Source of the DNA: Planctomycetales bacterium
Lineage (GTDB): Bacteria; 4484-113; JAFGCY01
Assembly (NCBI GenBank): GCA_022646745.1
Contig: CP060262.1
Location: 150,001 to 182,000 of the forward strand
Direction of reading: 5' to 3'
DNA length: 32,000 nucleotides
Part shown: piece by piece, positions 954 to 27,936 of the stretch
How positions within the stretch are numbered: position 1 is the stretch's first letter
Layout of the letters: every line of letters starts with the position of its first letter
The notes under the pieces: generated by a model
Seen by the model: the letters and a program-made list of their open reading frames with translations, nothing else
What the model was told of the DNA's origin: nothing
Database searches by the model: none
Made by a program: the position numbers and the translations under genes

Positions 954-1811
954 TCAGGACTTCCCTCCAACCTCCGCACTCCTCACTCCAACCTTCTTCT
1001 TGAGTACCACCAGCGCAATCCCGCCGAGGATCACCACGCTGCAGATTGCCAGCCTCGGCGTAAGCACCTCGCCCAGCAGCAGCACCCCACCCAGCGCGGC
1101 GATCGGCGGCACGCTGAGCTGCACCGTGGCCGCCGTGACCGAGGCCAGCGAGCGTAGTGCGGCATACCACAGCACGTAGCCGATACCGGATGCCAGTGCG
1201 CCGGAGAGCACCGCCCAGCCCCAGCCATCCAGCTTCTGCTGGGTGAACTGCGCCAGCGCCAGCCACAGCAGGATGGCCGGCAGGGCAGCGCGGATGAAGT
1301 TGCCGGCGGTGGCGGCGGCCGGGTTGGCAATACCCTTGCCGCGCAGGGAATAGATCCCCCAGGCGACGCCGGCGGCCAGCATGAACAGTGAGCTCACAAG
1401 CGGCGGCTGGCTGAGGCCCGGCAGCAGCAGGTAGAGCACGCCGGCGGCCGCCAGCAGGAAACCGGCGAGGCGCAGGCCGGACAGCCGCTCGCCGCGGGAC
1501 AGGCCGTAGCCGATCATCGTCACCTGCACGGCACCGAACAGCAACAGCGCGCCGGTGGCGGCACTCAGCTGCATGTAGGCCGCGGAGAAGAAGCCGGCGT
1601 AGGCCAAAAGCGCCAGGGCGGAGGGCCAGTTGCCCTGCACACGCTGGCGGTGGACCAGCATCATCAGCCACAGCATCGCCGCGCCGGACAGCACACGCAG
1701 CATGGTGAAGGACGCCGGGTCGATGCTGCCTGAGGCCAGCGCCAGGCGGCAGATGATCGAATTGCCGGCGAAGGCCAGCATCGCCAGCGCGGTGAGGATG
1801 AGGGTGGTCAT
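954..1811 (-). CDS. EamA/DMT-superfamily permease (10-TM drug/metabolite transporter family)
   Basis: 285-aa ORF with an ATG at 1809-1811. It is hydrophobic throughout, with two-halves EamA-like organisation (N-terminus MTTLILTALAMLAFAGNSIICRLAL). The overlapping ORFs at 922..1671 and 1031..1330 are Arg/Pro/Ala-rich alternative-frame artefacts. Confidence 0.8.
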   Translation of the reverse strand: MTTLILTALAMLAFAGNSIICRLALASGSIDPASFTMLRVLSGAAMLWLMMLVHRQRVQGNWPSALALLAYAGFFSAAYMQLSAATGALLLFGAVQVTMIGYGLSRGERLSGLRLAGFLLAAAGVLYLLLPGLSQPPLVSSLFMLAAGVAWGIYSLRGKGIANPAAATAGNFIRAALPAILLWLALAQFTQQKLDGWGWAVLSGALASGIGYVLWYAALRSLASVTAATVQLSVPPIAALGGVLLLGEVLTPRLAICSVVILGGIALVVLKKKVGVRSAEVGGKS

Positions 1812-1865
1812 TGCTGCGTGATGAGTGTACTACTGAGTGGAGCTGCGACTTCAGTCGCTGGAAAG

Positions 1866-1992
1866 ACCCATGACTACAGACTCCAGAAGTCAGACTCCAG
1901 ACTACAGTCTACAGATCTCAAGCCGTAGCCCTCTGCGTCAATGTACCGAATTGCCAATCTGAAGTCTGGGGTCTAGGGTCTGAGATCTGATT
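1866..1992. repeat. Imperfect long palindrome / low-complexity element
   Basis: cagatctca (about 1909) pairs with tgagatctg (about 1980). gactccagactacagtctacag is opposed by gaagtctggggtctagggtctg. There is also a small hairpin, gcgacttcagtcgc, at about 1845. Confidence 0.45.
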
Positions 1993-1993
1993 T

Positions 1994-2140
1994 TCGCCTC
2001 GCATACGCTCGGGTGGCACCGGGGTCAGCGAAGTGGTTTTCTAAACGCGGAGTCGCGGAGACGCTGAGGAAAACGGACGTGCGAAACTGGTTTGCGCACA
2101 ATGGATCGCAATGAATGTACTCGATCTGGCAATGCCGCAA
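1994..2140. repeat. Third copy of the ~150-bp intergenic repeat family also present at 6191-6337 and 6347-6500
   Basis: Shared blocks: tcgc(a)tacgctcggg; gtggttttctaaacgcggag versus atggttttctttaacgcgaag; ctcgatctggcaatgc versus ctcgatctggcccatgc. Confidence 0.5.
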
Positions 2141-2261
2141 TCCTCCCCGTGCCCTCACCACTCTGCTACCCCCAACAACCTGGCTCCTACGTCCTCACCC
2201 GCCGCCGGCCGGATTGCCATCCCCACCCTGGGCGATCAAGCCTGCGGCCTGACTAATCTGC

Positions 2262-2322
2262 CGTCTCACGCAAGCGCTCGACGGTCTGGCGCTGCGGCTG
2301 CGCATTCGCGCATCCGGGTCTC
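2262..2322. repeat. Dispersed copy of the repeat family found at 20901-21291
   Basis: tctcacgcaagcgctcgacggtctg matches cctcacgcaagcgctcggcggtctg at 20911 and 20988. The following gcgctgcggctgcgcattcgcgcatccgggtc is the reverse complement of gacccggatgcgcgaatgcgcagccgcag at about 21107. Confidence 0.6.
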
Positions 2323-2572
2323 GCTGAACTCACTACACCCGGGATGTCCGGCGGCTGATGGGATGAGCGGCGCAAATCGGTTACTTTGTTTGGGTTATAT
2401 CAATTGGCAACAACAGGACACCCTGCACGATGTTCACACAAGGATTGCCAAAGGAGATGAAAAAGGGGGTAACAAAAAAGCCGAAATCAGCCTAGACTGA
2501 GTAACCCGCCGGAGGGGCAACTGTCAGGTGATTACCGTCACTGTACACATAGGCACTCAAACAGTACATCAA

Positions 2573-2788
2573 TTAATCTTCTCTTTTCTCAAAGATCAAT
2601 TCCCATTCATATACTGCATCATTATCACCATCATGCTCAATGAAACCGATTAGATCTTCAAACGCATGGATTTCTCCTTGGTTAACAATTCGATCAACGC
2701 AACGATAACCTCGGCGATCACCTTCCTCTATGTACGTGCCGGCTTCCTGGACAGTTCCAGTAAACTCATACTTAAACTTAGTTGGCAT
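2573..2788 (-). CDS. Small acidic hypothetical protein (71 aa), third gene of the low-GC islet
   Basis: ATG preceded by AAGGAG (minus strand gttcAAGGAGtaggttATG). D/E-rich. Separated from the upstream gene by a 240-bp AT-rich spacer. Confidence 0.6.
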   Translation of the reverse strand: MPTKFKYEFTGTVQEAGTYIEEGDRRGYRCVDRIVNQGEIHAFEDLIGFIEHDGDNDAVYEWELIFEKRED

Positions 2789-3028
2789 AACCTACTCCTT
2801 GAACTAGTATAGACATTCAGAAATCACTATAACACATTTATTGTCCTACTACTTATTCTGATTCTCGAATCAACAGTTTACAACATTCACCGCAAGATTG
2901 TGAGATTCAGTGTGCTATCAATAAGAAATTAAGAAGATAATGGTCAATGCAACTAACCATGATTGACAACGCTGCCGTACAATTAGATTAATGATCTGAG
3001 CTTAATTGCTACAGAAAGTTCTGCAAGA

Positions 3029-4051
3029 TTACGCAAATAAGTCCATCTGCTTATTTTGTTCTTGATTGCTAACAACCTGCCTGGAAAATTTTCTCGCAAC
3101 AGATTTCTTACTTAGAATATCCGCAGCAAATTTTCCTATGTTCTTTCTATTCTCATAGACAGGTCTGTAATTCCATTTAACATTCGAAGCTGAAACTGAT
3201 ATGAAGTCATTATCAGCTGCGAATTTTATTGACTTCCTTAACTGTCGCTGCTCTTCTTCGATTGAACTCATTAACTCAATACAACTCAACAATTTATCCT
3301 GTTGAATTTCCGAGTTTTCTTGCACTTCTCCGTTGCTTGTTTGCGCATAGACAATTTTATACATCTCGTAAACATATTCAATTCGATGTACAGGACTAAG
3401 CCCATCATTCGTTGTTAGGTAATCAATGCCATAATGTTCAATATCATCTATTTTTATCTTCACATCATCATCAAAAACAGCCCCAAGTAGTTTAGATCCT
3501 GATTTTATTCCGTATAGGTCTATATGGTTTGTATCCTCTCGCCTTAACCTAAGACCAACACCACTCGTATTCATTGATTTTGATACTGCAGACCAAACAC
3601 CACAATCACTTATTGAAGTGTAATTAGAAGTTTCATTTCTTAATCTTGTAATATCATCATCTTCTATAATCAGCAACTTGTGATAGTTTGGGTTTCTAAC
3701 ATGAAGCTTCTTCCCCTCTATTATTATCTCGTTGACTTGACCCATCCTATTAATTTGCTCATGAAGTTCTTTGCTTTGTTTATCTGGCATGTATCCTGCC
3801 TTATACTCGCAAATCACCAGATCTTTATCTCGTTGCAACAACAAGTCTGGTCTGTATGTCCTTCCATCTATACAGCGAATCATTGGCCAACGATAAACTT
3901 TACCCTGAACAAATCTTTGCCACCAAAACGATAATCCGTCTATTACGGATTTTGTCTTATTGCAGATATCATACTTAGCTTGATAATCATTAAACTTATA
4001 GTAATAGTGGTCTTTCTTTTCCTGCTTAACTGGGAGTGGCGGTTTTCTCAT
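3029..4051 (-). CDS. Hypothetical protein with an N-terminal PD-(D/E)xK (restriction-endonuclease-like) nuclease motif
   Basis: 340-aa ORF with an ATG at 4049-4051 preceded by GGAGAGG. Motif TYRPD(69)LLLQRDKDLVIC-E(82)YK(84), encoded at about 3800-3850, has the form PD-x12-ExK. I recognise nothing in the C-terminal ~230 aa. Confidence 0.7.
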   Translation of the reverse strand: MRKPPLPVKQEKKDHYYYKFNDYQAKYDICNKTKSVIDGLSFWWQRFVQGKVYRWPMIRCIDGRTYRPDLLLQRDKDLVICEYKAGYMPDKQSKELHEQINRMGQVNEIIIEGKKLHVRNPNYHKLLIIEDDDITRLRNETSNYTSISDCGVWSAVSKSMNTSGVGLRLRREDTNHIDLYGIKSGSKLLGAVFDDDVKIKIDDIEHYGIDYLTTNDGLSPVHRIEYVYEMYKIVYAQTSNGEVQENSEIQQDKLLSCIELMSSIEEEQRQLRKSIKFAADNDFISVSASNVKWNYRPVYENRKNIGKFAADILSKKSVARKFSRQVVSNQEQNKQMDLFA

Positions 4052-5039
4052 TGTGCCTCTCCAAGTTGAAATTCACATCAATTGTATCTAGTATATCCAA
4101 CATAAAGGTTCTATCTGCAGACTTGGAAGCACTGAGGTAGATGTTTAACTTGTATCCACCATCGACTTCCATTCTGTAAAATTTAAGTGAGACTACACCA
4201 CCAGACCACTTGCTAAATATTTTCAAGGATACTCTTTCTTCTTCGGTACCCCAAGATACACTGTGTCCATGTTGATACAATTCACTATTTAGTGCAGAGA
4301 ATAGATGCTCCTCCTCCTTAATCGAACGTAAAACAAAGCTATAAAATCCGGTAACACGATTATTGGTATAACTTTCTAATCTATCCTCTATTAACTCTAT
4401 TCTCTCTAGCATGGAAGGAATAAGTAATTCCCATGAATATGGGTCAATTCCATTCTTGTTATATATTTGAAAGTATCTATCAAGTGAAAACAGTGGTTTT
4501 TTTATCTGTACTCTGTCCAAGTATTCATTTCCTATTTCAAGAGTAGCGCGAAGCTGATCTAAATACCTTTCATTAACATATTTCTGTTTTTTCCCTGTTC
4601 TGGCATAAGAATTACTTGACGCCAAGAACAGCAAGTCCTGCCCCGTTACTTTATTAAATTGCTCAAGTAGGCTTAGGAATTCATCGTTTGACATTATGAT
4701 TGGCTCAATTCCAATACTAGGGTTGAACAACAAGTAATTCCGTAGGAATAGTCGAATCTTATACTCATTGGAGTTGATTATCAGAAAGCGGAAATCACTA
4801 GTATTTGTCAGTACAACTGGATATTCAGTTATCTGAATCTCATTTGGCTCCCCACCCCAATAAAATGTAGCACGGATATTACTTGTACCAACTCTGACTA
4901 GCTCAACAGTTCCAATTGTGTTTTCCTGCCATGTTCCAATATTATGATCCAATTCTTCCCAGCAGTTGTTGAACACTCTAACAGGAATTGCCAAGTGTTC
5001 TCTCCAATCAAGTTGCTGGAATAGTTTTATATCTATCAT
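4026..5039 (-). CDS. Hypothetical protein (337 aa), first gene of the low-GC islet; no recognisable motif
   Basis: ATG at 5037-5039, only 2 nt after the moxR TAG. A GGAG lies 5 nt upstream, within the moxR 3' end. Its 3' end overlaps the next gene by 26 nt. No Walker A or other signature was seen. Confidence 0.65.
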   Translation of the reverse strand: MIDIKLFQQLDWREHLAIPVRVFNNCWEELDHNIGTWQENTIGTVELVRVGTSNIRATFYWGGEPNEIQITEYPVVLTNTSDFRFLIINSNEYKIRLFLRNYLLFNPSIGIEPIIMSNDEFLSLLEQFNKVTGQDLLFLASSNSYARTGKKQKYVNERYLDQLRATLEIGNEYLDRVQIKKPLFSLDRYFQIYNKNGIDPYSWELLIPSMLERIELIEDRLESYTNNRVTGFYSFVLRSIKEEEHLFSALNSELYQHGHSVSWGTEEERVSLKIFSKWSGGVVSLKFYRMEVDGGYKLNIYLSASKSADRTFMLDILDTIDVNFNLERHNEKTATPS

Positions 5040-5041
5040 AC

Positions 5042-6079
5042 CTACTCCGCGGTCGTCTGAACACTCGCGATGATGTCCTTCACCACCTTGTCGCTCGACA
5101 CGCCCTCGGCCTCGGCCTCGAAGTTGAGGATCGTGCGGTGCCTAAGCACCGGCAATGCCACGCGGCGGATGTCGTCGTAGCTGAGGTTGAAGCGGTTGTC
5201 GAGCAGGGCGAGCACCTTGCCGCAGAGGATCAGGGCCTGCACGGCGCGCGGGCTGGCGCCGTAGCGCACGTAGCGGCGCACGCTCTCCGGCGCGCGCACG
5301 TTGTCAACATGCGTGGCCATCGCCAGGCGCACCGCATAGCGCACCACATGCTCGGCCGCCGGCACCTGGCGCACGATCTTCTTCATCTCGATGATGCGCG
5401 CGCCCTTCACCGCCGGCTGCACGGTGGCGAACTTCGCCGTGGTGGTGCGGTCGATCACCTCCATCAGCTCGTCCTCGCTCGGGTAGTCCACGTTGATCTT
5501 CAGCATGAAGCGGTCGAGCTGCGCCTCCGGCAGGGGGTAGGTGCCCTCCTGCTCCAGCGGGTTCTGCGTTGCCAGCACCAAAAACGGCGGCGGCAGCTCG
5601 CGGCGCTCGCCGTAGACCGTCACGCTGCGCTCCTGCATGCTTTCGAGCATGGCGGACTGCGTCTTCGGCGTGGCACGGTTGATCTCGTCGGCGAGGATGA
5701 TGTTGGCGAAGATCGGGCCGGGGATGAACTTGTAGGCCTTGTGGCCGTGCTCATCCTCCTCGATGATGTTCGTACCGGTGATGTCCGCGGGCATCAGGTC
5801 CGGCGTGAACTGGATGCGGTTGAAGTCGAGGTCGATCGCGTCAGCCAGCGTGCGGATCAAGAGTGTCTTGGCCAGGCCGGGGACACCCTCGAGCAGGGCG
5901 TGGCCATCGGCGAACAGGGTGACCAGCACTTCCTCGATCACGGCCTTCTGGCCGACGATCACCTTGCCGACTTCTGACTCAATGGCCCGGTAGTCCGTCT
6001 GGAACTCCTGGCAGATGCGCTGTACATCAGCGGGGGAAATATTGCTCAGATCCATGTCCTCTCCACTAGTTCGATCCAT
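5042..6079 (-). CDS. moxR: MoxR-family AAA+ ATPase
   Basis: Walker A LLEGVPGLAKT, Walker B ILADEINRA, sensor region LATQNPLEQEGTYPLPEAQLDRF. The start is probably ATG 6079 (MDRTSGED) or ATG 6055 (MDLSN, preceded by GGAGAGG). The ORF-track start at 6199 lies in repeat DNA. The antisense ORF 4988..5977 is rejected. Confidence 0.88.
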   Translation of the reverse strand: MDRTSGEDMDLSNISPADVQRICQEFQTDYRAIESEVGKVIVGQKAVIEEVLVTLFADGHALLEGVPGLAKTLLIRTLADAIDLDFNRIQFTPDLMPADITGTNIIEEDEHGHKAYKFIPGPIFANIILADEINRATPKTQSAMLESMQERSVTVYGERRELPPPFLVLATQNPLEQEGTYPLPEAQLDRFMLKINVDYPSEDELMEVIDRTTTAKFATVQPAVKGARIIEMKKIVRQVPAAEHVVRYAVRLAMATHVDNVRAPESVRRYVRYGASPRAVQALILCGKVLALLDNRFNLSYDDIRRVALPVLRHRTILNFEAEAEGVSSDKVVKDIIASVQTTAE

Positions 6080-6190
6080 TATAGACGGCAGAGCCGGGAG
6101 GCAGAAGGCAAAAGGCAGAAGGCCGGCCGCTGGCGCCAGTGATCTGACGCCGGATGCGGCGCTTGGGTTTTCAGGGGAATGCCGCAAGGC

Positions 6191-6337
6191 TCGCTGCACT
6201 CGGGCTGCGTTGAGCAGGGGTGGGATAGATTTATCTAACGCGAAGACGCGAAGGAAGATGAGCGGGAGATACCTTAGCGCCTCAGCGTCTTAGCGTTAAA
6301 AGAAGCAGAGATGCGATCTCGAACTGGCCCGTGCGGA
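6191..6337. repeat. ~150-bp intergenic repeat, tandem copy 1
   Basis: Aligns block by block with 6347-6500: tcgctgcactcggg, taacgcgaagacgcgaaggaagatgag, ttagcgcctcagcgtcttagcgttaaa, atgcgatctcgaactggccc. It contains an internal imperfect inverted repeat, taacgcgaagacgc / gcgtcttagcgtta. Confidence 0.75.
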
Positions 6338-6346
6338 TGCACGACT

Positions 6347-6500
6347 CGCTACGCTCGGGATTCGTTTAGCAAAGGGGGGATGGTTTTCTTTAACGCGAAG
6401 GCGCGAAGACACGAAGGAAGATGAGAAAGAGATAACTTAGCGCCTTAGCGTCTTAGCGTTAAATGAAGCCGACATGCGATCTCGATCTGGCCCATGCGAG
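6347..6500. repeat. ~150-bp intergenic repeat, tandem copy 2
   Basis: Same blocks as copy 1, with an extra gcgcgaagaca sub-repeat. It ends 10 nt from the stop of the membrane-protein gene. Confidence 0.75.
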
Positions 6501-6510
6501 GCTCACTAGT

Positions 6511-7617
6511 TCATTGCGCGCTGTCGCTGCTGCTGTCCGCTGCCGGGGCCGGTGGAGCCTCCGCAGCAGCGGATCCAGCTTCCTGTGCCGGCAGTTCCTC
6601 CAGGCCGGGCAGTTCCTCGAGCCTGATGTTACCACCGCTGAGCTGTCCGACCTCCAGCTCGTGCCAGTTGTCGCTTTCGTCGAAGCTGCGCACCCGCACA
6701 ACGGCTGAGCCATGGCGAATGGCGAGCGGGGTCTGCACCACCAGCGGCCGGCCGCCGCCGGCGTACTCGAGGAAGATGGTCAGGCCACTGAGGCTGAAGC
6801 GCAGGCCCGGCAGGCTGGCATCGCCGAGCCTGAACTGGGCCGCCGGGTAGTTGCCGGCCTCAACCGGACGGGGGCCGAGGCGCAGCTGCTGTAGGCGCCC
6901 GCCGTTTTCCAGCTCCAGCCAGAAGGCGCGGTCGCGCCTGAGCAGCCAGGGCAGGAAGCCGCCGATGAACATCCCGGCGATGAAGCCCGCCAGCAGCATG
7001 CAGATCGAAAGCTGGAACATACTGCCGGACTCTACCGCCAAGCGGCTGAATGGTGCGAGCAGCAGCATGCCGAGCATCCCGCCGATGCTGCCGATCAGCA
7101 GGCCCCACTCACCGGGCAGGTTGTCAACCGCATGCGGCAGCACGACCCAGGCGCCGGCGGCGCAGGTGAAGAACAGCAGCATTTCTACGGGCAGGATCCC
7201 GCTGATGCCGGAGATGCCCTGCACCATGATGTAGAACAGCGCGAACACGCTCAGCAGCAGGCCCGAGATGAGGCTGTGGAGGATCGCCAGCGGCAGCATC
7301 CTGCGCAGTCCGAGGAAGGGGTTGCGGCGGATGCCCAGCAGCGCCTGCCAGACAAGGGACAGAAGCGGCAGCAGAACCAGCATGCCGCCCAGCAGGCCGA
7401 TGATCATGCTGGCGCCGACATAGAGCAGCAGGGTGCCGAACAGGTTGATGAGCTGCATGAGCCCGGGGGTGGCGCTGATGTTGTTGAAAACGGCGGCCAC
7501 ATAGCTGACCCCGTCCTGCAGCAGGCCGGCGGCAGCCACCAGCGGCAGGCTGGCCAGCAGCCAGGCGAGGCCGAAGCCGAGGATGGCACCAAGGCGCGTC
7601 AGGAAACCTTGCGGCAT
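6511..7617 (-). CDS. Polytopic membrane protein with a C-terminal soluble domain of about 110 aa and an acidic/Ala-Pro tail; function unknown
   Basis: The start is taken at ATG 7615-7617 (MPQGFLTRLGAILGFGLAWLL). There are about 6-7 hydrophobic helices, then RRDRAFWLELENGG...VVRVRSFDESDNWHELEV. No clear SD was seen. The 501-nt upstream extension of the listed ORF (to 8118) runs antisense into the lipoprotein gene and is rejected. Confidence 0.6.
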   Translation of the reverse strand: MPQGFLTRLGAILGFGLAWLLASLPLVAAAGLLQDGVSYVAAVFNNISATPGLMQLINLFGTLLLYVGASMIIGLLGGMLVLLPLLSLVWQALLGIRRNPFLGLRRMLPLAILHSLISGLLLSVFALFYIMVQGISGISGILPVEMLLFFTCAAGAWVVLPHAVDNLPGEWGLLIGSIGGMLGMLLLAPFSRLAVESGSMFQLSICMLLAGFIAGMFIGGFLPWLLRRDRAFWLELENGGRLQQLRLGPRPVEAGNYPAAQFRLGDASLPGLRFSLSGLTIFLEYAGGGRPLVVQTPLAIRHGSAVVRVRSFDESDNWHELEVGQLSGGNIRLEELPGLEELPAQEAGSAAAEAPPAPAADSSSDSAQ

Positions 7618-7737
7618 GCAACATGATACGCGCAGTGGCGCACGGAAGTGTTCAGTGGAGGCCGGCGCAGGGCTGCATGGAAATGGGGAAACACTGATCA
7701 AATGAATGTACATCCGCCAGGCGGCCCGGTGGGCAGA

Positions 7738-7746
7738 TGTTAAATT
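7738..7746 (+). promoter_or_regulatory. Extended -10-like motif TGTTAAATT upstream of lipoprotein paralog 1
   Basis: TGnTAnnTT lies 28 nt before ATG 7775. The same motif class sits at a similar distance before paralogs 2, 3 and 4. Confidence 0.35.
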
Positions 7747-7774
7747 TGGGATGACCTTCGGCAAGGAGAATTCC

Positions 7775-10378
7775 ATGCACCGTACCCTTACCCTATTGAT
7801 TTTCATTGCACTGCTCGCGGCATCCTGCGGCGGCAGTGCCACTCCCGGAACTGTCCAGCAGGCGGCTGAAAGCCCGCTGACTGGCCAGCTGGCGGACAAC
7901 GGCAGACTGCCGGAGGACGGCCTGCTGCCCTGGGAAAGCCTCAACGAGAACGGTTTCGTGGATCCCGCGACGGCGCGGCGCTCGACGGCAATCAATGAGA
8001 ACAGTGAATTCTGGCGCGGAGTGGATGCCTGGCAGACCGCCGGCAGCACGACGGCCACGGGCCAGGCCCTGCGGCTGGACAGCGGCAGCGCGGGCAGCGG
8101 TGAGCGCAGCAGCGCCACCTACCGCATCCCGTTGGCCGGCGAGAACCCGGCGATCCTGTCCACCGACATCAACCTGCGCAGCCGCGACGACGCCAGCGCC
8201 AGTGATTTCTTCATCAGCATCGCCAACTTCAGCAGCGGACGCTGGGACTGGTTCGGCCCCTTCAGTGACGGCCGCATCCGGCTGCCGCTGGATGAAGCTG
8301 CGACCGGGAACTACATCTCCGGACTGGGCAACGCCTTCGTGAGCGTGGCGGCCTACAACGGCAGCAGCTTTGACATCGTCGGAATCTCGCTCAACCAGTT
8401 CGACCCGGGCGATGCGACGGCACCCCCCGCCCCGAGCGGACTGAGCCTGGCGGCAAGAGTCGGCGCGGTGGAAATGCAGTGGAACGGCGTGATCGCAGCT
8501 GACCTCGCCGGCTATGCGATTTACTACAGTGACAAGACCTTCGTGAATCCGGGCAGTGCCGGGGTGAAGCAGCTCAACTACCTTGAGGGCGGCACGCGCC
8601 ACCTGCTCAGCGGTGTGAGCGGGACGGTATTCGTGGCCGTCAGTGCACTGGACCTCAGCGGCAACGAGAGCGCGATCTCCAGCGTGGAGAGCACCGCCGT
8701 GATCGCCGGTGATGGCCCAGTGCTCGAGCTGCTGGCGGGCAGCACGGAGGGTATCGTCGGCCAGCCGATCTCCCTGACGGCCAGCGGCTCGCCAGCCTTT
8801 GACTGGGACCTCGATGGCGACGGCACCTTTGAGGTGACAGGCGATGTGTCCGGCAGCCAGATTGCCGACACCGGCAAGGCGGGCATCATCCGCCCGGCGG
8901 TGCGCGGCTCCGATGGTTCCACGGCGGTGGCACTCGGCGCGGTCAGCCTCATCGTGGCCAGCGACCTGCCCCCGGTGGCGATCCTGACCGCCAACCGCAC
9001 CAAGGGTGCGATCATCGACGGCGGCACAAGTCCGCTCAACGTGCAGTTTGACGGTGGCAACAGCTATGACGACGGTCCGACACTGGATTACTCCTTCAGC
9101 CCGCTCGGTGATGGCAACTACTCCACTCCCTCATCGAATGCCAACTACAACCAGGGCTACTCCAGCTCCGGGCAGTACACGGCGATGATGCGCATCGAGG
9201 ACAGCGCCGGCCAGCAGGCGCTGGCCCTGCTGCCGATCCGCGTGGAGCAGGTGACGGGATTCAAGAACTACGTCGTCTATCCCGGCTACAACAGCGGCAT
9301 CTACGGCTGCATGGCAGTGGTCGCCGGCCGCCCGGCGGTGCTGTTCCGCAAGTTCGGCCCGACCCCGGACGACGATGGCCTGTTCTACAGCCGTGCAATG
9401 GATGACGGCGGCAGGCTGTGGGGAGAGCCGGTCAAGCTGGCTGACAACAACAACTATGGCGACTACTTCGACCTTGCCGTGATCGCAGGCAACCCGGCGA
9501 TCGCCTGGTACAAGTTCAGCGCGAACAAGGTGTTCTACCGCCGCGCCAGCAGCAGCACCGGCCAGACCCTGTCCGACTGGAACAACCCGGGATTCGAGAT
9601 CTCCGGGGTACTCAGTGTCAGCGACGAGGTCAGGCTGCTGGAGGTTTCCGGCAACCCGGCCGTGATCTGGACCGACGGCTCTGACATCAAGTACGTGCGT
9701 GCGACCGGCGGCTCCGGTACCGGTGACTTCGCCGGGGACTGGACGGACGCGCCCTTCAACATCGTGGCCGCTTCCAACATCGGCCCACGACCGGACTTCG
9801 CCATGATTGCCGGCAACCCGGCGATCGCCTACTGGAACACCGGCACCAATGAGGCCTGCTATGTGAGGGCGACTTCCGCCAGCGGTTCCAGTGCACTGGA
9901 CTGGCCGGCCACTCCCGTGGTTGTGGATGGCAGCGACACCTGTACTGGACGTGTCAACCTGCTGCAGGTGAATGGCGCACCGGCGATCAGCTTCTTTGAC
10001 AGCGCCGACGATTCCGATATCCATTACACCCGTGCCACCACGGCAACCGGCACCGACATGGCAGACTGGCCGGTGGCGGTTTCCGTCAACCACGGGTTCG
10101 GCAGTGGCAATACCTGGCACGACCTGGCGATCATCTCCGGCAGGCCGGCGATCGCCTATGCTGACTACCGTTCCGGAGCAGCGACCTCGTACCGCCGGGC
10201 GAATGATGCCAACGGTTCGTCCTGGGGCGATCCGATGAGGGTCGGATCCAACATCGACTACAACGACTCGATGTACGAGCGGGTCGACCTGGAGGACCTG
10301 AACGGCTTCCCGGTAGTCTATAACCACTACCAGAGCTGGGACCGTGGGGTCGTCAGCGTGCTGGAAAGTGAGTTGTAG
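7775..10378 (+). CDS. Surface lipoprotein paralog 1: N-terminal beta-sandwich-like region, FN3, 2x PKD-like, 7-repeat GNPAIAY propeller
   Basis: ATG 7775 is preceded by AAGGAGAA. Signal peptide and lipobox MHRTLTLLIFIALLAASC. FN3-like APPAPSGLSLAARVGAVEMQWNGVIAADLAGYAIYY. PKD-like FDWDLDGDGTFEV and a second PKD-like segment. Seven ~45-aa repeats (AGRPAVLF, AGNPAIAW, SGNPAVIW, AGNPAIAY, NGAPAISF, SGRPAIAY, NGFPVVY). Confidence 0.85.
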   Translation: MHRTLTLLIFIALLAASCGGSATPGTVQQAAESPLTGQLADNGRLPEDGLLPWESLNENGFVDPATARRSTAINENSEFWRGVDAWQTAGSTTATGQALRLDSGSAGSGERSSATYRIPLAGENPAILSTDINLRSRDDASASDFFISIANFSSGRWDWFGPFSDGRIRLPLDEAATGNYISGLGNAFVSVAAYNGSSFDIVGISLNQFDPGDATAPPAPSGLSLAARVGAVEMQWNGVIAADLAGYAIYYSDKTFVNPGSAGVKQLNYLEGGTRHLLSGVSGTVFVAVSALDLSGNESAISSVESTAVIAGDGPVLELLAGSTEGIVGQPISLTASGSPAFDWDLDGDGTFEVTGDVSGSQIADTGKAGIIRPAVRGSDGSTAVALGAVSLIVASDLPPVAILTANRTKGAIIDGGTSPLNVQFDGGNSYDDGPTLDYSFSPLGDGNYSTPSSNANYNQGYSSSGQYTAMMRIEDSAGQQALALLPIRVEQVTGFKNYVVYPGYNSGIYGCMAVVAGRPAVLFRKFGPTPDDDGLFYSRAMDDGGRLWGEPVKLADNNNYGDYFDLAVIAGNPAIAWYKFSANKVFYRRASSSTGQTLSDWNNPGFEISGVLSVSDEVRLLEVSGNPAVIWTDGSDIKYVRATGGSGTGDFAGDWTDAPFNIVAASNIGPRPDFAMIAGNPAIAYWNTGTNEACYVRATSASGSSALDWPATPVVVDGSDTCTGRVNLLQVNGAPAISFFDSADDSDIHYTRATTATGTDMADWPVAVSVNHGFGSGNTWHDLAIISGRPAIAYADYRSGAATSYRRANDANGSSWGDPMRVGSNIDYNDSMYERVDLEDLNGFPVVYNHYQSWDRGVVSVLESEL

Positions 10379-10402
10379 CGACCGGTCCAGCTGGCAACAA
10401 CA

Positions 10403-10440
10403 GGCCGCTGTGGGAGTTCCCATGGCGGCCTTTTCATTTC
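10403..10440 (+). terminator. Rho-independent terminator after paralog 1
   Basis: Stem ggccgc..tggga / tccca..gcggcc followed by ttttcatttc. Confidence 0.65.
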
Positions 10441-10479
10441 CGGGGAGCTTCCCTCTGGCAGCTTTCCCGAACAGGCGCA

Positions 10480-10488
10480 TGCTACATT
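10480..10488 (+). promoter_or_regulatory. Extended -10-like motif TGCTACATT upstream of paralog 2
   Basis: Lies 29 nt before ATG 10518. It is identical to the 9-mer before paralog 4. Confidence 0.35.
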
Positions 10489-10517
10489 TGTAGCCAGTTA
10501 ATGCAGAGGAGACTCCT

Positions 10518-13109
10518 ATGCACCGCATCCTGATTCCCCTGATGATCATTGCCCTGTTCGCGGTTTCCTGCGGCGGCAATGCCACTCCCGTACCGGTCCA
10601 GCCCGGCCAGGGAGCACTGACCGACATGCCGGCTGACAACGGGGCAATTCCCGAGGACAGCCTGCTGCCCTGGGAAAGCCTCAACGAGAACGGATTCGTG
10701 GATCCCGCGACGGCGCGGCGCTCCACCGCAATCAACGAGAACAGTGAATTCTGGCGTGGCGTGGATGCCTGGCAGGTGGCCGGCAGCACAACAAATGTGG
10801 GCCAAGCGCTGCGGCTGGACAGCGGCAGTGCGGGCAGCGGTGAGCGCAGCAGCGCCACCTACCGCATCCCGCTCACGGGTGAGAACCCGGCGATCCTGTC
10901 TACCGACATCAACCTGCGCAAGCGCGACGACGACAGTGCCAGCGGGTTCTACATCAGCATCGCCAACTTCGAGACGGGCCGCTGGGACTGGTTCGGTCAG
11001 TACAGCGACGGCCGGATCAGGCTGTCGCTGTCCGAGGCTGCGACGGGGAACTACATCTCCGGACTGGGCAACGCCTTCGTCAGCGTAGTGGCCTACAACG
11101 GCAGCAGCTTCGACATCGTCGGCGTCTCACTCAACCAGTTCGACCCGGCTGATGCGACGGCACCGCCTGCCCCGAGCGGACTGAGCCTGGCGGCACGCGT
11201 CGGCGCGGTGGAAATGCAGTGGAACGGCGTGATCGCAGCTGACCTGGCCGGCTACGCGATCTACTACAGTGACAAGACATTCGTCAACCCGGGCAGTGCC
11301 GGTGTGAAGAAGCTGAATTACCTCGAGGGCGGCACGCGCCACCTGCTCAGCGGTGTGAGCGGGACGGTGTTCGTGGCGGTGTCCGCGGTGGACCTCAGCG
11401 GCAACGAGAGCGCGATCTCCAGCGTGGAGAGCACCGCCGTGATCGCCGGTGACGGCCCGGTGCTCGAGCTGCTGGCCGGCAGCACCGAGGGCATCGTCGG
11501 TGAGCCGATCACGCTGACAGCCAGCGGGTCCCCGGCCTTTGACTGGGACCTCGATGGCGACGGCACGTTTGAGGTGACCGGCGACGTGTCCGGCAGCCAG
11601 CTGGCTGACACCGGCAAGGCGGGCATCCTCCGCCCGGCGGTGCGCGGTTCCGACGGCGCTACGGCTGTGGCACTCGGCGCGGTAAGCCTGATCATCGCCC
11701 AGGACCTGCCGCCGGTGGCGGTGCTGACAGCCAACCGCCTGCGCGGCGCGATCATCAACGGCGAGACCAGCCCGCTGAGCGTGAACTTCAGTGCCGGCCA
11801 GAGTTATGACGACGGCCCGACGCTGGACTTCGCCTGGGCACTGACCGGTGATGCCAGCTTCGGCCCGGCCGGACCGGCTGACAGCAACTCCTACCAGTAT
11901 TCCAAGAGCGGCGTGTTCGTGGCGATGATCCGCGCCGAGGACAGCGCGGGCCAGGTGGCCTATGCCCAGCTGCCGATCAGCGTCGAGCAGGTGACGGGCT
12001 TCCGTGCATCCTTCCTGTGTGACAACCCGGCCGGCCTGTTCGGTTCACTGGCAATCGTGGACGGTCATCCAGCGGTGGCCTTCCGCCGCTTCGGCCCCGG
12101 CGCCGCACTGGACGGCCTGTTCTACAACCGTGCACTGGACAGCGAAGGCAAGCTCTGGGGCGAGCCGGTGCCACTCCAGACCCAGCCGAACTGGGGCGAC
12201 TTCGCTTGCCTGGCGGTGATCGCCGGCAACCCGGCGATCGCCTACAACAACGGCAACGTGCCCGGCATCTGCTACATCCGCGCCAGCTCCAGCACTGGCC
12301 AGACCCTGGCGGACTGGAACAATGCGCCTGTCGTGCTGACAACTCCGGCCTTCGCCTCCGAGGAGATCGAGCTCATCGACCTGAATGGCAACCCGGCGGT
12401 GGTCTGGTTCGACAGCGGTGACATCTGGTTCCAGCGTGCCACCTCCGCCGCCGGAACCGGTGACAACGCCGGTGACTGGGGTGACCCGGCCATTGAGATC
12501 TACAATGCCGGCAACGCCGATGTACGGCCGGATTTCAAGATCATTGACGGCAACCCGGCTGTGGCCTTCCGCCAGTCGGCCGCCAACCAGGCGATGTACC
12601 TGCGTGCCACCAGCAGCACCGGCGCCAGCGCGCTGGACTGGCCGGGCGTGCCAGTCGTGGTCAGTGCAGCTCATACCGTCACCGGGCGCGTCAACCTCGA
12701 GTTCGTCAGCGGCGCCCCGGCGGTCTCCTACTACGAAAGCGGCAACAGCCTGCGCTATACGCGGGCCAACACCAGCACCGGCTCAATTGCGGCCGACTGG
12801 CCGCTGTCAACGGTGATTGACGAGGGCTTCGGCCAGGGCACAACCTGGCATGACCTCGCGATGGTCGGCGGGAGGCCGGCGATCGCCTACGAGGACTTCC
12901 AGTCCGGCCAGCACACGAAGTACCGCCGGGCCAACAACTCGACCGGCAGCTCATGGGGTGAGGAATGGCATGTGGCCCCGCAGAATGACTGGCAGGACTC
13001 GGCCTACATGCGCATCGACCTGGAGGACCTGAACGGCTTCCCGGCGATCTACGTGCACCACCAGAACTTCGACCGGCCTTCGTTCTACACCTTCGACACT
13101 GAACTGTAG
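10518..13109 (+). CDS. Surface lipoprotein paralog 2 (same architecture as paralog 1)
   Basis: GAGGAG SD; MHRILIPLMIIALFAVSC lipobox. Nearly identical to paralog 1 at nucleotide level over about the first 1.2 kb. The second PKD-like segment and the propeller are divergent. Confidence 0.85.
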   Translation: MHRILIPLMIIALFAVSCGGNATPVPVQPGQGALTDMPADNGAIPEDSLLPWESLNENGFVDPATARRSTAINENSEFWRGVDAWQVAGSTTNVGQALRLDSGSAGSGERSSATYRIPLTGENPAILSTDINLRKRDDDSASGFYISIANFETGRWDWFGQYSDGRIRLSLSEAATGNYISGLGNAFVSVVAYNGSSFDIVGVSLNQFDPADATAPPAPSGLSLAARVGAVEMQWNGVIAADLAGYAIYYSDKTFVNPGSAGVKKLNYLEGGTRHLLSGVSGTVFVAVSAVDLSGNESAISSVESTAVIAGDGPVLELLAGSTEGIVGEPITLTASGSPAFDWDLDGDGTFEVTGDVSGSQLADTGKAGILRPAVRGSDGATAVALGAVSLIIAQDLPPVAVLTANRLRGAIINGETSPLSVNFSAGQSYDDGPTLDFAWALTGDASFGPAGPADSNSYQYSKSGVFVAMIRAEDSAGQVAYAQLPISVEQVTGFRASFLCDNPAGLFGSLAIVDGHPAVAFRRFGPGAALDGLFYNRALDSEGKLWGEPVPLQTQPNWGDFACLAVIAGNPAIAYNNGNVPGICYIRASSSTGQTLADWNNAPVVLTTPAFASEEIELIDLNGNPAVVWFDSGDIWFQRATSAAGTGDNAGDWGDPAIEIYNAGNADVRPDFKIIDGNPAVAFRQSAANQAMYLRATSSTGASALDWPGVPVVVSAAHTVTGRVNLEFVSGAPAVSYYESGNSLRYTRANTSTGSIAADWPLSTVIDEGFGQGTTWHDLAMVGGRPAIAYEDFQSGQHTKYRRANNSTGSSWGEEWHVAPQNDWQDSAYMRIDLEDLNGFPAIYVHHQNFDRPSFYTFDTEL

Positions 13110-13136
13110 TCCGGGCCATTGACCTGGCACACCAGG

Positions 13137-13176
13137 GCCGCCGTGGAACTTCTCCACGGCGGCTCTTTTCTGTTTC
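13137..13176 (+). terminator. Rho-independent terminator after paralog 2
   Basis: 11-bp stem gccgccgtgga / tccacggcggc, loop acttc, then tcttttctgttt. Confidence 0.75.
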
Positions 13177-13186
13177 GGCTGCACCA

Positions 13187-13195
13187 TGCTAAGTT
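13187..13195 (+). promoter_or_regulatory. Extended -10-like motif TGCTAAGTT upstream of paralog 3
   Basis: Lies 31 nt before ATG 13227, directly after the preceding terminator. Confidence 0.35.
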
Positions 13196-13226
13196 ATTGC
13201 AGGCTAACAAAGCACGGAGATCCGAC

Positions 13227-15791
13227 ATGCGCCCAATACTTATTGCCATGCTGACAGTCCTGCTTGCTTCCTGCACCGGCAGCAATCCCCAGACTATGGC
13301 GAAACCAGGCAGCAATCCGCTTGATGGAACAGCGCTGGCCGGATCCGGCCCAGTCCCGGATGATACCCTGCTGCCCTGGGAAGGGATCACTGCCGACGGC
13401 ATGGTTGATCCAGCCACCGGCCGGCGTTCCACCGCCATCAACGGAGACAGCGAATTCTGGCGCGGGGTGGACGCCTGGCAGACCGAGGGCAGTGCCTCGC
13501 CAGATGGCCAGGCCCTGGCTCTCAGCAGTGGTGACAGCGGCAGCGGCCAGCGCAGCCAGGCGACCTACCGCATTCCGCTGACGGGGGAGAACCCGGCGAT
13601 GCTGTCAACGGACCTGAACCTGCATCCGCGCAGTGACGGCAGCCAGAGCGAATACAGTATAGGCATCGCGAACTACAGCACGGGCCGCTGGGACTTCCAC
13701 GGCCCGTTCAGCGATGGACGCATCCGCCTGCCGATTGACGCGGCGGCGACGGGGGACTACATCTCCGGGCTTGGCAACTGCTACCTGAGCATAGTTGTCT
13801 ACAACGGCAGTGCGCTGGACATCGTCGGCGTGGCGCTGAACCAGCTGGACCCGGATGATACGAACGCACCTCCCGTACCGACCGGCCTTAGCCTGGCGGC
13901 GGTTGACGGCGGGCTGGAACTGCAGTGGAACAGCGTGCTGGCCGCCGACCTGGCGGGCTACGGTATCTACTGGAGCAACGCGGAATTCAGCGCGCTGGAC
14001 GAGGCAGGCGTGCGCAGCCTGCCCTACCTGGAAGGCAGTACCAGGCACGTGCTGGGCGGGCTCAGCGGACTGACATTCGTGGCGATCACCGCAATGGACC
14101 TGAATGGCAACGAAAGCGGATTCATCATGCTGGATGAAACGGCGGGCACGGGTGATGCCCCCGGCCTGTCACTGGAAGCCCAGGCCACGAGCGGCAGGAC
14201 CGGAGACAGCATCCAGCTGGCCGCCCAGGGGGCCGCGAGCTACGACTGGGACCTGGATGGCGACGGCATCTATGAGGTGACCGGCGACGTCGGCGGAGTG
14301 ATGCCGGCTGACACCGGCAAGGCTGGAATCATCAGGCCCGCGGTGCGCGGCACTGACGGCACAGCGGTCGCCCTGGAGGCGGTCTCACTGATCATCTCGC
14401 AGGACCTGCCGCCCGTTGCGATGCTGTCCACTGACAACGGTGAGGGCGTACTGTTCTACGGGGAGCTCACGCCGTTCAGCTGCAACCTCAGTGCAGCGGG
14501 AAGTTATGATGACGATGCCATCAGCGACTTTTCCTTCAGTCCGCTCGGTGACGGCAGCTTCAGCAGCAACGGCACGGACCCGGGCTTCGCCGCCCAGTAC
14601 GGCAAGCCCGGGCTGTTCTATGCAAGCCTGCGGGTGGAGGACAGTGCCGGCCAGCAGGCCCAGGCAGCTGTGCTGCAGCGGGTGCGCCAGGTCAGCGGCT
14701 TTGAGGCGCGCACCTACAACAACAACGCCAACACCGGACAGATGGCGCATATCGCGGTCGTGGCGGGCAATCCCGCACTGGTCTACAACTCCGCGCTCGG
14801 CCCGGACCTTGACGGCGTCATCTACCAGCGTGCGCTGGACCCGCAGGGGCATATCTGGGGTGATCCCATCGTCCTGCTTGACAATGCCGGGGATGGCGAC
14901 CTGCCGATGCTAGAGATCATCAACGGCAACCCGGCGATCACCTTCCACGACCTCGTTTCCGGGGACCTGATGTACGCGCGTGCCACCAGCAGCACAGGAC
15001 AGAACAAGGTGGACTGGCCGGAAGCGATATCAGTTGACATCGGGCCCGTGGCGCGCAAGCCCGTGCTGAGGGAGGTTGATGGCCAGCCGGCGATAGCCTA
15101 TGTCAGCGGATCAAAGCTGTTCTACGTACGGGCCACCGGCAACAGCGGCAGTTCGGCCGGGGACTGGTCCGTGCCACGCATGGAACTGTACTCGGCCCCC
15201 GGGCTGCAGTGGCTGCCGGAGATGAAGGTGGTGGCCGGCAACCCGGCGATCGGGTTCATCAACCTGGATGACAACGAAGCCCTGTACATGCGGTCCACCA
15301 CGGCGGACGGCGCAAGTGGACTGGACTGGCCGGCGGTGCCGGTGGTCGTCAGCGGTGCCGACCCGGCATCCTCGGTCATCGACCTGGCGGTGATTGACGG
15401 CAACCCGGCGATGACCTACCTTGACCTGAACAGCCTCGGCCTGGTCTACACGCGCTCCAACACCGCGACCGGGACCAATGCGGCGGACTGGCCCAATGCG
15501 ATCGTGATCGACGCTGGCAACCTGCAGGGTGCTGACTTCCAATGCCTGGCGGAGGTTGGCGGCTATCCCGTGGTGGCCTACACCGACACCCAGTTCGGCG
15601 TCCGCACGAATGTCCGTCGCGGGCTGACAACGACCGGCAGCAGCTGGGGACCGGAACTGACGGTCGCCAATCCGGACGATTCAGTCTACTACTGGATCGA
15701 ACTGATCGACCTGCACGGCCTGCCTGCAGTGGCAGTGTACAACACCAGCCGGAGCCAGGGCATGTTCAGCACACCCGGGCTCTACGACTGA
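13227..15791 (+). CDS. Surface lipoprotein paralog 3 (same architecture, most divergent propeller)
   Basis: ATG 13227 (MRPILIAMLTVLLASC) is preceded by ACGGAGA. The listed ORF start at 13119 would read through the terminator hairpin. Its FN3 and PKD-like segments resemble those of paralog 4. Repeats: AGNPALVY, NGNPAITF, DGQPAIAY, AGNPAIGF, DGNPAMTY, GGYPVVAY, HGLPAVAV. Confidence 0.85.
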   Translation: MRPILIAMLTVLLASCTGSNPQTMAKPGSNPLDGTALAGSGPVPDDTLLPWEGITADGMVDPATGRRSTAINGDSEFWRGVDAWQTEGSASPDGQALALSSGDSGSGQRSQATYRIPLTGENPAMLSTDLNLHPRSDGSQSEYSIGIANYSTGRWDFHGPFSDGRIRLPIDAAATGDYISGLGNCYLSIVVYNGSALDIVGVALNQLDPDDTNAPPVPTGLSLAAVDGGLELQWNSVLAADLAGYGIYWSNAEFSALDEAGVRSLPYLEGSTRHVLGGLSGLTFVAITAMDLNGNESGFIMLDETAGTGDAPGLSLEAQATSGRTGDSIQLAAQGAASYDWDLDGDGIYEVTGDVGGVMPADTGKAGIIRPAVRGTDGTAVALEAVSLIISQDLPPVAMLSTDNGEGVLFYGELTPFSCNLSAAGSYDDDAISDFSFSPLGDGSFSSNGTDPGFAAQYGKPGLFYASLRVEDSAGQQAQAAVLQRVRQVSGFEARTYNNNANTGQMAHIAVVAGNPALVYNSALGPDLDGVIYQRALDPQGHIWGDPIVLLDNAGDGDLPMLEIINGNPAITFHDLVSGDLMYARATSSTGQNKVDWPEAISVDIGPVARKPVLREVDGQPAIAYVSGSKLFYVRATGNSGSSAGDWSVPRMELYSAPGLQWLPEMKVVAGNPAIGFINLDDNEALYMRSTTADGASGLDWPAVPVVVSGADPASSVIDLAVIDGNPAMTYLDLNSLGLVYTRSNTATGTNAADWPNAIVIDAGNLQGADFQCLAEVGGYPVVAYTDTQFGVRTNVRRGLTTTGSSWGPELTVANPDDSVYYWIELIDLHGLPAVAVYNTSRSQGMFSTPGLYD

Positions 15792-15800
15792 GGCCTTAGC

Positions 15801-16271: not shown

Positions 16272-16400
16272 GGCTACACTCCCTGCAACCCGGCCGGACA
16301 GCCTCCCTGCGCCCGAAACCGGACGCTGTGACCTAACGACAGTGTAACGCCGCGAGAAGGATCCTGCCGGAAAGTGAGTGCCGGGTGGGCACCGGTCAGC

Positions 16401-16409
16401 TGCTACATT
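16401..16409 (+). promoter_or_regulatory. Extended -10-like motif TGCTACATT upstream of paralog 4
   Basis: Lies 42 nt before ATG 16452, in the divergent intergenic region shared with the GyrI-like gene. Confidence 0.35.
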
Positions 16410-16451
16410 AATTCGGGGTGATGCCCGAAAGCGGGATTCCCGGAGGCGATT

Positions 16452-25029: not shown

Positions 25030-25030
25030 G

Positions 25031-25894: not shown

Positions 25895-25897
25895 TTC

Positions 25898-27850: not shown

Positions 27851-27936
27851 TTTGAACCCCGTTTGCGCGCAAAGGACGCGCCCTTTGATCTGTGTGGCAT
27901 CACCGCCACACTCCTCCGCCTCGTTTTCTTATCGAA

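Follow-up and report, generated by a model that had tools for sequence, protein, structure and literature searches.

A high-GC core gene that gives way, within two nucleotides of its stop codon, to DNA of very different composition raises the question of how such a junction arose, how the genes behind it are expressed and what they do. This arrangement was found in a 32,000-nt stretch of a Planctomycetales bacterium (contig CP060262.1, positions 150,001 to 182,000; below, the window), in which moxR, the gene for an AAA+ ATPase, is followed on the minus strand by an islet of low guanine plus cytosine (GC) content carrying two overlapping genes, referred to here as gene A and gene B, with the proteins A and B. 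The evidence presented below makes it fairly probable that the islet, a candidate cassette for defence or conflict, was acquired horizontally, occupies a hotspot and is expressed by transcriptional read-through from moxR.

Sequence and composition of the moxR junction

The features on which the argument depends, in window coordinates, are the following.

2379..5041, minus strand: whole low-GC islet, about 2.66 kb, GC about 0.36-0.40 (blastn breakpoints against the relatives L003 and L002, GC steps)
5042..6055, minus strand: moxR, 337 aa, AAA+ ATPase of the MoxR/AAA_3 family (Pfam; independent 337-aa gene call on contig L085)
5045..5048, minus strand: GGAG, Shine-Dalgarno-like tetramer in the final moxR codons, 5 nt before the gene A ATG (sequence)
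5044-5042, minus strand: moxR stop codon (sequence)
5040..5041, minus strand: 2-nt spacer gt from the moxR stop to the gene A start, proximal islet breakpoint (sequence)
5039-5037, minus strand: ATG start codon of gene A (sequence)
4026..5039, minus strand: gene A, 337 aa, no recognisable domain (open reading frame, ORF; homologous to the upstream partner of B in contexts L082 and L083)
3029..4051, minus strand: gene B, 340 aa, predicted N-terminal PD-(D/E)xK nuclease and C-terminal winged-helix-like domain (homologues, alignment, AlphaFold2 model, Foldseek)

Read on the minus strand (window 5100-5000), the junction runs ...GTT CAG ACG ACC GCG GAG TAG gt ATG ATA GAT ATA AAA CTA.... The position of the gene A start was examined, revealing no ATG, GTG or TTG farther upstream in its frame, and the N-terminus of the protein lines up with that of a distant homologue, in agreement with the assigned start. 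When 300-nt flanks were compared along the 32-kb window, the biggest GC step was located at 5040-5046 (delta 0.30, about 5 standard deviations), where GC falls from about 0.68 on the moxR side to about 0.36 on the islet side, and the second biggest, at 2373-2380, corresponded to the opposite end of the islet. The same change was evident in the GC content of third codon positions, which was 0.917 for moxR, 0.358 for gene A, 0.331 for gene B and 0.319 for a 71-aa ORF near the distal end of the islet. Re-reading of the sequence thus confirmed three observations of an earlier annotation of this DNA (the original prediction): the stop-gt-ATG junction at the end of moxR, the GC cliff at its stop codon and the GGAG located inside its last codons (5048-5045).

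The hexamer GCGGAG followed by a stop codon was conserved in five moxR relatives, whatever comes next. At the position of the 2-nt spacer (gt in the window) the relatives carried GGGGGGGAGAGGGGA, and after the TAG of moxR two of them, L002 and L003, continued with GGGGGG(G)AGAGGGGA, compared to gtATG in the window.

The junction in independent assemblies

A low-GC block misjoined to moxR during assembly would account for a composition that changes abruptly at a single base in DNA from an uncultured organism, and an exact search of JGI metagenome contigs with a 28-mer spanning the junction gave no match. Against such a chimera, the proximal junction was crossed at 100% identity by three contigs from different sequencing runs. 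One of them, L085 (ENA ERZ27309238), was equal to window 1800-6636 except for two substitutions, both in moxR, and the other two, L086 (Logan SRR7638773) and L088 (Logan SRR776449), contained the junction sequence GGAGTAGGTATGATAG without change. The exact protein of the 71-aa ORF was called on 23 contigs from several projects or runs, and its gene was covered by ten contigs from different runs (L084-L092 and L001), most of which continue across the distal end of the islet into the flank. In addition, the DNA on both flanks was collinear with the sister genome L003, and a like architecture was seen again in L003/L093, L082 and L083 (see below). Therefore, the misassembly that the original prediction had considered is excluded in practice, and we regard a chimera as having a negligible probability.

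The interval between moxR and EamA in related genomes

Relatives were searched with one genome per species, and two of them were close: L003 (metagenome-assembled genome, MAG, 'UBP7 HKST-UBA01'), with a MoxR of 99% aa identity, and L002 (MAG AC1.30), with 94%. The DNA homology of both with the window stops exactly at 5041, immediately behind the moxR stop codon. The islet is missing from these sister genomes, in which other DNA fills the interval. In L003, homology restarts at about 2379-2230, before a shared EamA gene, and the same slot holds a different low-GC islet (GC 0.34-0.40) with a GC cliff of its own. This islet, present in L003/L093, encodes a 415-aa protein without family, together with a PLDc_2 nuclease for which DISARM DrmC models gave a match (7.7e-10), and the allele was detected on five further contigs. 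A relationship of A or B of the window to the 415-aa or PLD proteins was rejected, as no similarity was found. Between the window islet and that of L003 the left breakpoint differs by 15 nt, and therefore the two insertions probably represent separate events in the same slot. In L002 there is no low-GC block, and the slot is occupied by genes on the opposite strand, namely a dGTPase-like HD gene (1.7e-9), a DUF6933/PDC-S63 gene (1e-7) and a DarG-like fragment (8e-7).

Both low-GC alleles were assembled from a single run (SRR776449), each on its own background, with A+B on L088 and the 415-aa/PLD pair on L097; these backgrounds are about 93-97% identical in moxR. The slot is therefore polymorphic at the level of strains or sister species. 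It measures 2.3-3.7 kb and holds one module per genome. From these alignments, the moxR-EamA interval is a small polymorphic slot with nuclease or defence-type cargo, and a core-gene-flanked arrangement of the kind that defines defence hotspots was found, from just three related genomes.

Directly after the moxR stop of L002 (11018-11130 of that sequence), a G-rich tract was observed, followed by four short GC-rich hairpins (e.g. GCCTGACGCAAGTCAGGC and GTCAGCCGTAAGGCTGAC), a series that could be either a repetitive extragenic palindromic (REP)-like array or stacked terminators.

Extent and content of the islet

The islet consists of the overlapping A-B pair, an AT-rich spacer, the 71-aa ORF and a terminator-like hairpin, followed beyond its distal end by the EamA gene:

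2789-3028: AT-rich spacer of 240 nt between gene B and the 71-aa ORF
2573..2788, minus strand: 71-aa ORF with its own AGGAG ribosome site (sequence, exact protein look-up)
2478..2493, minus strand: terminator-like hairpin followed by a T-run, distal islet end (consensus scan only; fold unremarkable)
954..1811, minus strand: EamA-family transporter gene, host side of the slot distally (Pfam EamA 9.6e-21; synteny with L003/L093)

The 71-aa ORF belongs to this islet and is not conserved in the other A+B cassettes described below; an 88-aa ORF located after the L082 cassette was considered as its relative and rejected for lack of similarity.

Signs of a mobile element were searched for at both ends. 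ORF and domain scans revealed no integrase or transposase in or adjoining the islet, no terminal inverted or direct repeats and no target-site duplication were found at 2379 and 5041, and the four islets shared no end motif, including any of the attC type. The window contained no tRNA genes or Rfam families that could serve as integration target. The islet thus lacks the transposase or integrase, terminal repeats and target duplication that define a transposon or a Tn7-like element.

The encoded proteins were equally refractory to annotation. Scans of A, B and the 71-aa ORF with Pfam, PADLOC, PHROGs and NCBIfam gave no match, and PADLOC v2 also failed to match the A and B proteins of L082 and L083, so that the pair falls outside the catalogued defence systems; the alternative cargoes of L003 and L002, in contrast, did give PADLOC matches (DrmC, dGTPase, PDC-S63 and DarG). 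A tblastn comparison of A and B with phage and plasmid collections gave no match, the PDB yielded nothing significant whether single sequences or profiles served as query, and A and B profile scans of JGI metagenome contigs and IMG/VR revealed no relatives.

Some repeats were detected between the distal islet end and the EamA gene. Upstream of EamA, window 1864-1919 contains a 14-nt tandem repeat (AGACTCCAGAAGTC-like) of variable copy number, as contig L092 has one unit fewer and several short-read contigs stop at 1838. L003 lacks a block of about 78 nt present at window 2231-2309, in which a GC-rich repeat of 33 nt (2283-2315) was noticed. An inverted copy of this repeat, with 2 mismatches, lies at 21113-21145, where chance would give 0 such copies, and position 2291 is a break point in three Logan contigs. 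The block looks like a small repeat of the REP or miniature inverted-repeat transposable element type.

Gene B encodes a predicted PD-(D/E)xK nuclease

Gene B overlaps gene A by 26 nt. When its product was compared to 5.8 billion proteins by sequence search, only an identical fragment was found, and an exhaustive HMMER search recovered three distant full-length homologues (P0002-P0004; E 1.4e-9 to 5e-4, 20-24% identity). In the resulting 4-sequence alignment, D69, L70, E82, K84 and G86 were invariant, as expected for a PD...ExK motif:

3800..3847, minus strand: codons of the putative catalytic motif D69...E82-x-K84 (YRPDLLLQRDKDLVICEYK) of gene B (4-sequence alignment, model)

An AlphaFold2 model built with this alignment reached a predicted local distance difference test score (pLDDT) of 67.6 and a predicted template modelling score (pTM) of 0.64, compared to an unusable single-sequence model (pLDDT 35.6). 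In the model, the nuclease core is N-terminal (residues about 50-130), and the motif residues are located on consecutive strands (70-74 and 77-84) between helices 8-48 and 91-104, while residues 220-293 form a winged-helix-like unit (helix-strand-helix-helix-strand-strand). Nearly all Foldseek matches of the model were PD-(D/E)xK nucleases, at the level of the superfamily (TM about 0.2), and included the R2 retrotransposon endonuclease (RLE), Bax1, McrC, MGME1, Hjc and viral MmcB-like proteins (best E 8e-6). Bax1 was among the best-superposed PDB matches (prob 0.99, root mean square deviation 3.0-3.4 A over 94-97 columns, E 0.025-0.03), and TnsA was absent among the top 50 of them. None of the four B-family members matched Pfam even at E <= 10, McrC and McrBC families included. 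Taken together, the invariant residues, the model and the Foldseek matches support the assignment of B to the PD-(D/E)xK superfamily by fold, with catalysis as a prediction; to this extent, the original prediction was right to call the 340-aa protein a nuclease.

A possible relationship of B to DUF58 was rejected by hhalign. In one assembly (L090 541-597, equivalent to window 3721-3662; Logan SRR17907852), gene B carries GGGG->GG and CCC->CC changes that split it into pieces of 117 and 215 aa, which represent either sequencing error or a decaying nuclease allele.

Genes A and B form a cassette that occurs without moxR

A sequence search with A against the 5.8 billion proteins gave no match. 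Long genomic context was available for two B homologues from distant genomes, L082 (NCBI GCA_020849855.1) and L083 (ENA ERZ25039462). In each case a homologue of A stands before B (347 or 361 aa) and shares 8 or 17 nt with it; to these homologues window A is related with BLASTP values of 3e-8 (L083) and 2e-4 (L082). These pairs also form low-GC islets (0.37-0.47) in hosts of 0.62-0.70 GC, and are located directly downstream of uvrB in the same orientation, with a gap of about 33 nt in L083 and 232 nt in L082. The uvrB genes of the two genomes share 82% nt identity and nothing else between them could be aligned. No moxR was found in the surroundings of these cassettes and, conversely, A and B hidden Markov models (HMMs) had no match in 80 other moxR loci (one genome per species). 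Thus, by sequence comparison, A+B is a conserved overlapping two-gene cassette that is not linked to moxR; the overlap between its genes probably makes them a translationally coupled pair. With four lineages among about 15 billion proteins, A+B is a new, extremely rare and previously unannotated two-gene family that combines a predicted PD-(D/E)xK nuclease with a partner of no recognisable family. Two suggestions on the origin of A were discarded, that of a divergent DUF58 (hhalign probability 2%) and that of a paralogue of B, for which no support was found.

The leader of gene A is nearly alike in two of the cassettes, GGAGTAGGTATG in the window and GGAGAAGGTATG in L083. Because of this resemblance, the window junction could, speculatively, have been formed at a microhomology between the host sequence GGAGTAGG and the cassette leader GGAGAAGG seen in L083; the comparison is a single one, and the start of the L082 copy is ambiguous.

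Repeats were also observed close to these cassettes. Downstream of that of L083 (11150-12400) there are at least three copies of host-type repeat units of about 350 nt, downstream of that of L082 (11330-11420) lies an array of the heptamer CCCTGAT, and the L082 islet is bracketed by a 12-nt inverted repeat (TTTTGTAGGGGC / GCCCCTACAAAA).

MoxR and its operon context

MoxR of the window is a standard member of its family, with a full-length match to the ATPase core (AAA_3 8.6e-63, profile positions 1-131 of 131) and an AAA lid domain (AAA_lid_2 1.3e-16), and the Pfam scan detected no extra DNA-binding domain. Its gene is a high-GC host core gene, with 94-99% aa identity of the products in sister genomes, and the C-terminus of MoxR was not altered by the islet insertion.

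The gene after moxR often encodes a DUF58 protein: this was so for the next downstream ORF in 28/63 moxR relatives, and an HMM built from 21 such DUF58 neighbours found DUF58 near moxR in 48/80 loci. The same HMM gave no match in the window or in L002-L005, with at least 7 kb downstream of moxR covered in each relative, and Pfam scans of the ORFs of the 32-kb window revealed neither DUF58 nor VWA. The original prediction was thus correct in that the DUF58/vWA genes of a canonical moxR-DUF58-vWA operon do not adjoin moxR here. Nevertheless, since the window and its four closest relatives all lack DUF58, the islet is not responsible for its absence, which is a trait of the whole closest moxR clade, with no recent displacement.

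Upstream of moxR, a co-oriented gene (window 6511-8118, minus strand; L093 3473-4582), called as 369 aa and without Pfam family, is conserved in L002, L003 and L093. As DUF58 is missing in the clade, this gene could be a candidate for the real partner of MoxR.

Other features of the window

Four tandem paralogous genes of about 860-890 aa were found at 7706-19061 on the plus strand (7706-10378, 10518-13109, 13119-15791 and 16452-19061), the first with a PKD domain; they are 70-88% similar at the DNA level, both mutually and to the L002/L003 copies. On the minus strand, 21376-31213 holds a secretin, PilM, T2SS-F and T2SS-E cluster of a type IV pilus or type II secretion system, interspersed with three family-less ORFs (24079-26785).

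Discussion

The reading that we favour, as a probable one, can be put as follows. The 2.66-kb islet would have been acquired horizontally and inserted 1-2 nt after the moxR stop, the GC cliff marking the proximal breakpoint. The cassette would have arrived with essentially no 5' leader, and its transcription would most likely come from read-through of moxR. Translation of gene A would probably depend on the GGAG within the final moxR codons, either by initiation or by termination-reinitiation. Since there is no room for a promoter or a terminator between the two genes, co-transcription of moxR with gene A plus termination-reinitiation is the simplest reading of the junction. MoxR would then take no part in the system itself, but would adjoin the landing site and donate transcription. 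B would act as the effector that cleaves DNA, A would assist it as sensor, specificity factor or regulator, and A+B would persist as one among several nuclease cargoes that alternate in a small defence hotspot. A role in defence or conflict is, from this context, the most plausible one for A+B, because of the nuclease effector, the tight pairing of the genes, their low GC, rarity and fast divergence, and the slot that carries DrmC-like, dGTPase-like and PDC-S63 genes in other genomes.

Several points weigh against this reading. Co-transcription and coupling of moxR with gene A are plausible from the geometry of the junction; the scan that found no minus-strand sigma-70-like promoter between both genes was based on the sigma-70 consensus, from which the promoters of this uncultured lineage may differ, and a promoter inside the 3' end of moxR is also conceivable. 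Confidence in the model of B, built from four aligned sequences, is medium (pLDDT 67.6), and the Foldseek search of the PDB with this model gave no match at E <= 1e-3. The defence role is deduced from context, as A and B match no PADLOC, Pfam, PHROG or NCBIfam model. Finally, the proteins of the two uvrB-linked cassettes are just about 20-23% identical, which suggests either extremely fast evolution or the independent arrival of divergent versions at the same site; such low identity behind similar uvrB genes hints at a site preference or self-mobility beyond that of a passive hotspot cargo.

This last point leads to an alternative in which the cassette propagates itself and targets its sites, in the manner of a homing endonuclease or a Tn7 attachment. 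In this scheme, alleles of a conserved gene (uvrB or moxR) that lack the cassette would be recognised at the 3' end of the gene by B together with A, and cut just downstream. A copy with the cassette would then serve as repair template, so that the promoterless cassette would always be inserted in the same orientation and would be transcribed from the host gene. All three known contexts lie directly behind a co-oriented conserved NTPase gene, with gaps of 2, about 33 and 232 nt, and the contrast between the uvrB genes and their cassettes is that expected for independent arrivals at one target. The near-identical gene A leaders (GGAGTAGGTATG and GGAGAAGGTATG) and the lack of an integrase or transposase in or beside the islet would also fit, and homing endonucleases and TnsA likewise combine a PD-(D/E)xK domain with a winged helix. 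However, three contexts are few, and a sister lineage has an unrelated islet in this moxR slot, with its breakpoint 15 nt off, which is better explained by a hotspot; in addition, there are no terminal inverted repeats, target-site duplication or common end motif, two proteins of 340 aa are large for a homing endonuclease, and TnsA was not in the top 50 PDB Foldseek matches. For these reasons we regard self-propagation as unlikely, and the same low rating is given to its boldest form, in which A+B would be the founding member of promoterless 'tail-gating' nuclease cassettes that actively seek out the 3' ends of conserved NTPase genes with housekeeping roles (uvrB, moxR) and depend on these genes for transcription. 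If true, such a cassette could be a homing-type selfish element, a defence system that carries its own site-specific mobility or, with the lowest likelihood, a nuclease driven by the NTPase encoded upstream of it.

An addiction pair without defence role, with B as nuclease toxin and A as its neutralising partner, stabilising itself in the chromosome, would agree with a conserved pair of genes that overlap and keep their order, with the nuclease fold of B and with the very patchy distribution and fast divergence of the family. The disruption of B by two homopolymer-length changes in L090 would also be in line with a toxin, but these may be sequencing errors, both proteins (about 340 aa) are far bigger than usual type II components, and the putative antitoxin A has no recognisable DNA-binding or antitoxin domain. 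We consider this toxin-antitoxin explanation quite improbable, bearing in mind that its line to abortive-infection defence is blurred. Still less credit is given to the proposal of the original prediction, in which a co-opted MoxR would be the motor that drives a restriction module of McrBC type, with A as adaptor and B as nuclease, all three co-transcribed and coupled. The stop-gt-ATG junction with a Shine-Dalgarno sequence inside moxR, the PD-(D/E)xK fold of B with McrC chains (7vsr_M, 6hz4_N) among its Foldseek matches, the use of MoxR and AAA_5 profiles as 'aliases' in a search for McrB homologues (PMC11090510), the presence of another DNA-acting NTPase gene (uvrB) upstream in the other two contexts and the good superposition of Bax1, the nuclease partner of the XPB helicase, all speak for it. 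However, the comparative data did not bear it out, and they agree with what the original prediction had itself named as refuting it. Orthologous moxR loci encode the same MoxR (99% and 94% aa in L003 and L002) followed by unrelated genes and without A or B, 0/80 other moxR loci have A or B, and the cassette itself is found behind uvrB with no MoxR nearby, so that the NTPase is neither dedicated to the nuclease nor co-inherited with it. MoxR matches the whole AAA_3 profile without an extra DNA-binding domain, and its C-terminus is unchanged by the insertion. B has its nuclease domain at the N-terminus and no McrC/McrBC Pfam match, compared to the N-terminal McrB-binding and C-terminal PD-(D/E)xK domains of a McrC-type subunit, and the McrC and Bax1 matches are at superfamily level only (TM about 0.2). 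Moreover, it is mechanistically implausible that a superfamily 2 helicase (UvrB) and an AAA+ ring (MoxR) could replace each other as motor. A co-opted MoxR is thus, in our view, highly improbable.

The foreign nuclease cassette in a hotspot, kept as the preferred reading, makes this locus a clean and multiply confirmed case of foreign DNA grafted no more than 2 nt from the stop codon of a core gene, which probably provides the cassette with its transcription as well as its ribosome-binding sequence. The A+B family has so far always been found as a low-GC islet in high-GC uncultured bacteria, twice behind uvrB, and the small polymorphic nuclease/defence slot after moxR is newly identified. A+B is a reasonable candidate for the discovery of defence systems, and for studying how cassettes without an integrase reach the same landing sites.

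Comparison with known systems

As in McrBC, the gene for an AAA+ NTPase adjoins that of a PD-(D/E)xK nuclease on one strand, and McrC is among the fold matches of B. In contrast, MoxR belongs to the AAA_3 ATPases and is conserved in genomes that lack the nuclease, gene A intervenes between them, B has an N-terminal nuclease domain without the N-terminal domain or family match of McrC, and the cassette also occurs without any AAA+ neighbour. A similar comparison can be made with the archaeal XPB-Bax1 repair pair, as the nuclease domains of Bax1 superpose well on B and the cassette lies behind the repair helicase gene uvrB in two genomes; in this case, the likeness is limited to the PD-(D/E)xK core (TM about 0.19, E 0.025-0.03), and the partner would be UvrB or MoxR, not XPB, in a hypothetical interaction.

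With respect to the canonical moxR-DUF58-vWA (Bat-type) operons, the MoxR of the window is a standard member (AAA_3 plus AAA_lid_2), whereas DUF58, found in 48/80 loci, is missing from the window and its four closest relatives, and A and B are not divergent versions of it.

Tn7-like elements insert at the 3' ends of conserved genes, with attTn7 located downstream of glmS, and their TnsA combines a PD-(D/E)xK domain with a winged helix. Like these elements and free-standing homing endonuclease genes, the cassette lies just after the stop of a conserved gene, in fixed orientation and without damage to it, B has a PD-(D/E)xK plus winged-helix-like layout, and divergent cassettes occupy the same uvrB site in two genomes. 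Unlike Tn7, the islet has no TnsB/C/D, DDE transposase, terminal repeats or target duplication, TnsA is not among the top fold matches of B, and the moxR slot accepts unrelated cargo too.

Parallels also exist with core-gene-flanked hotspots that exchange defence cargo, such as cDHS1 and cDHS2 of Pseudomonas aeruginosa (PMC10250203), and with the comparable defence hotspots of E. coli (PMC10121019). The moxR slot differs from them in being very small (2.3-3.7 kb, one module per genome), in that the window cargo matches no catalogued defence system and in that this cargo abuts the moxR stop codon and seemingly depends on moxR transcription. As in those hotspots, however, a fixed interval (moxR to EamA / a 578-aa gene) carries differing cargo in close relatives, this cargo is of foreign composition, nuclease-rich and without an integrase in the slot, and two low-GC islet alleles coexist in one sample.

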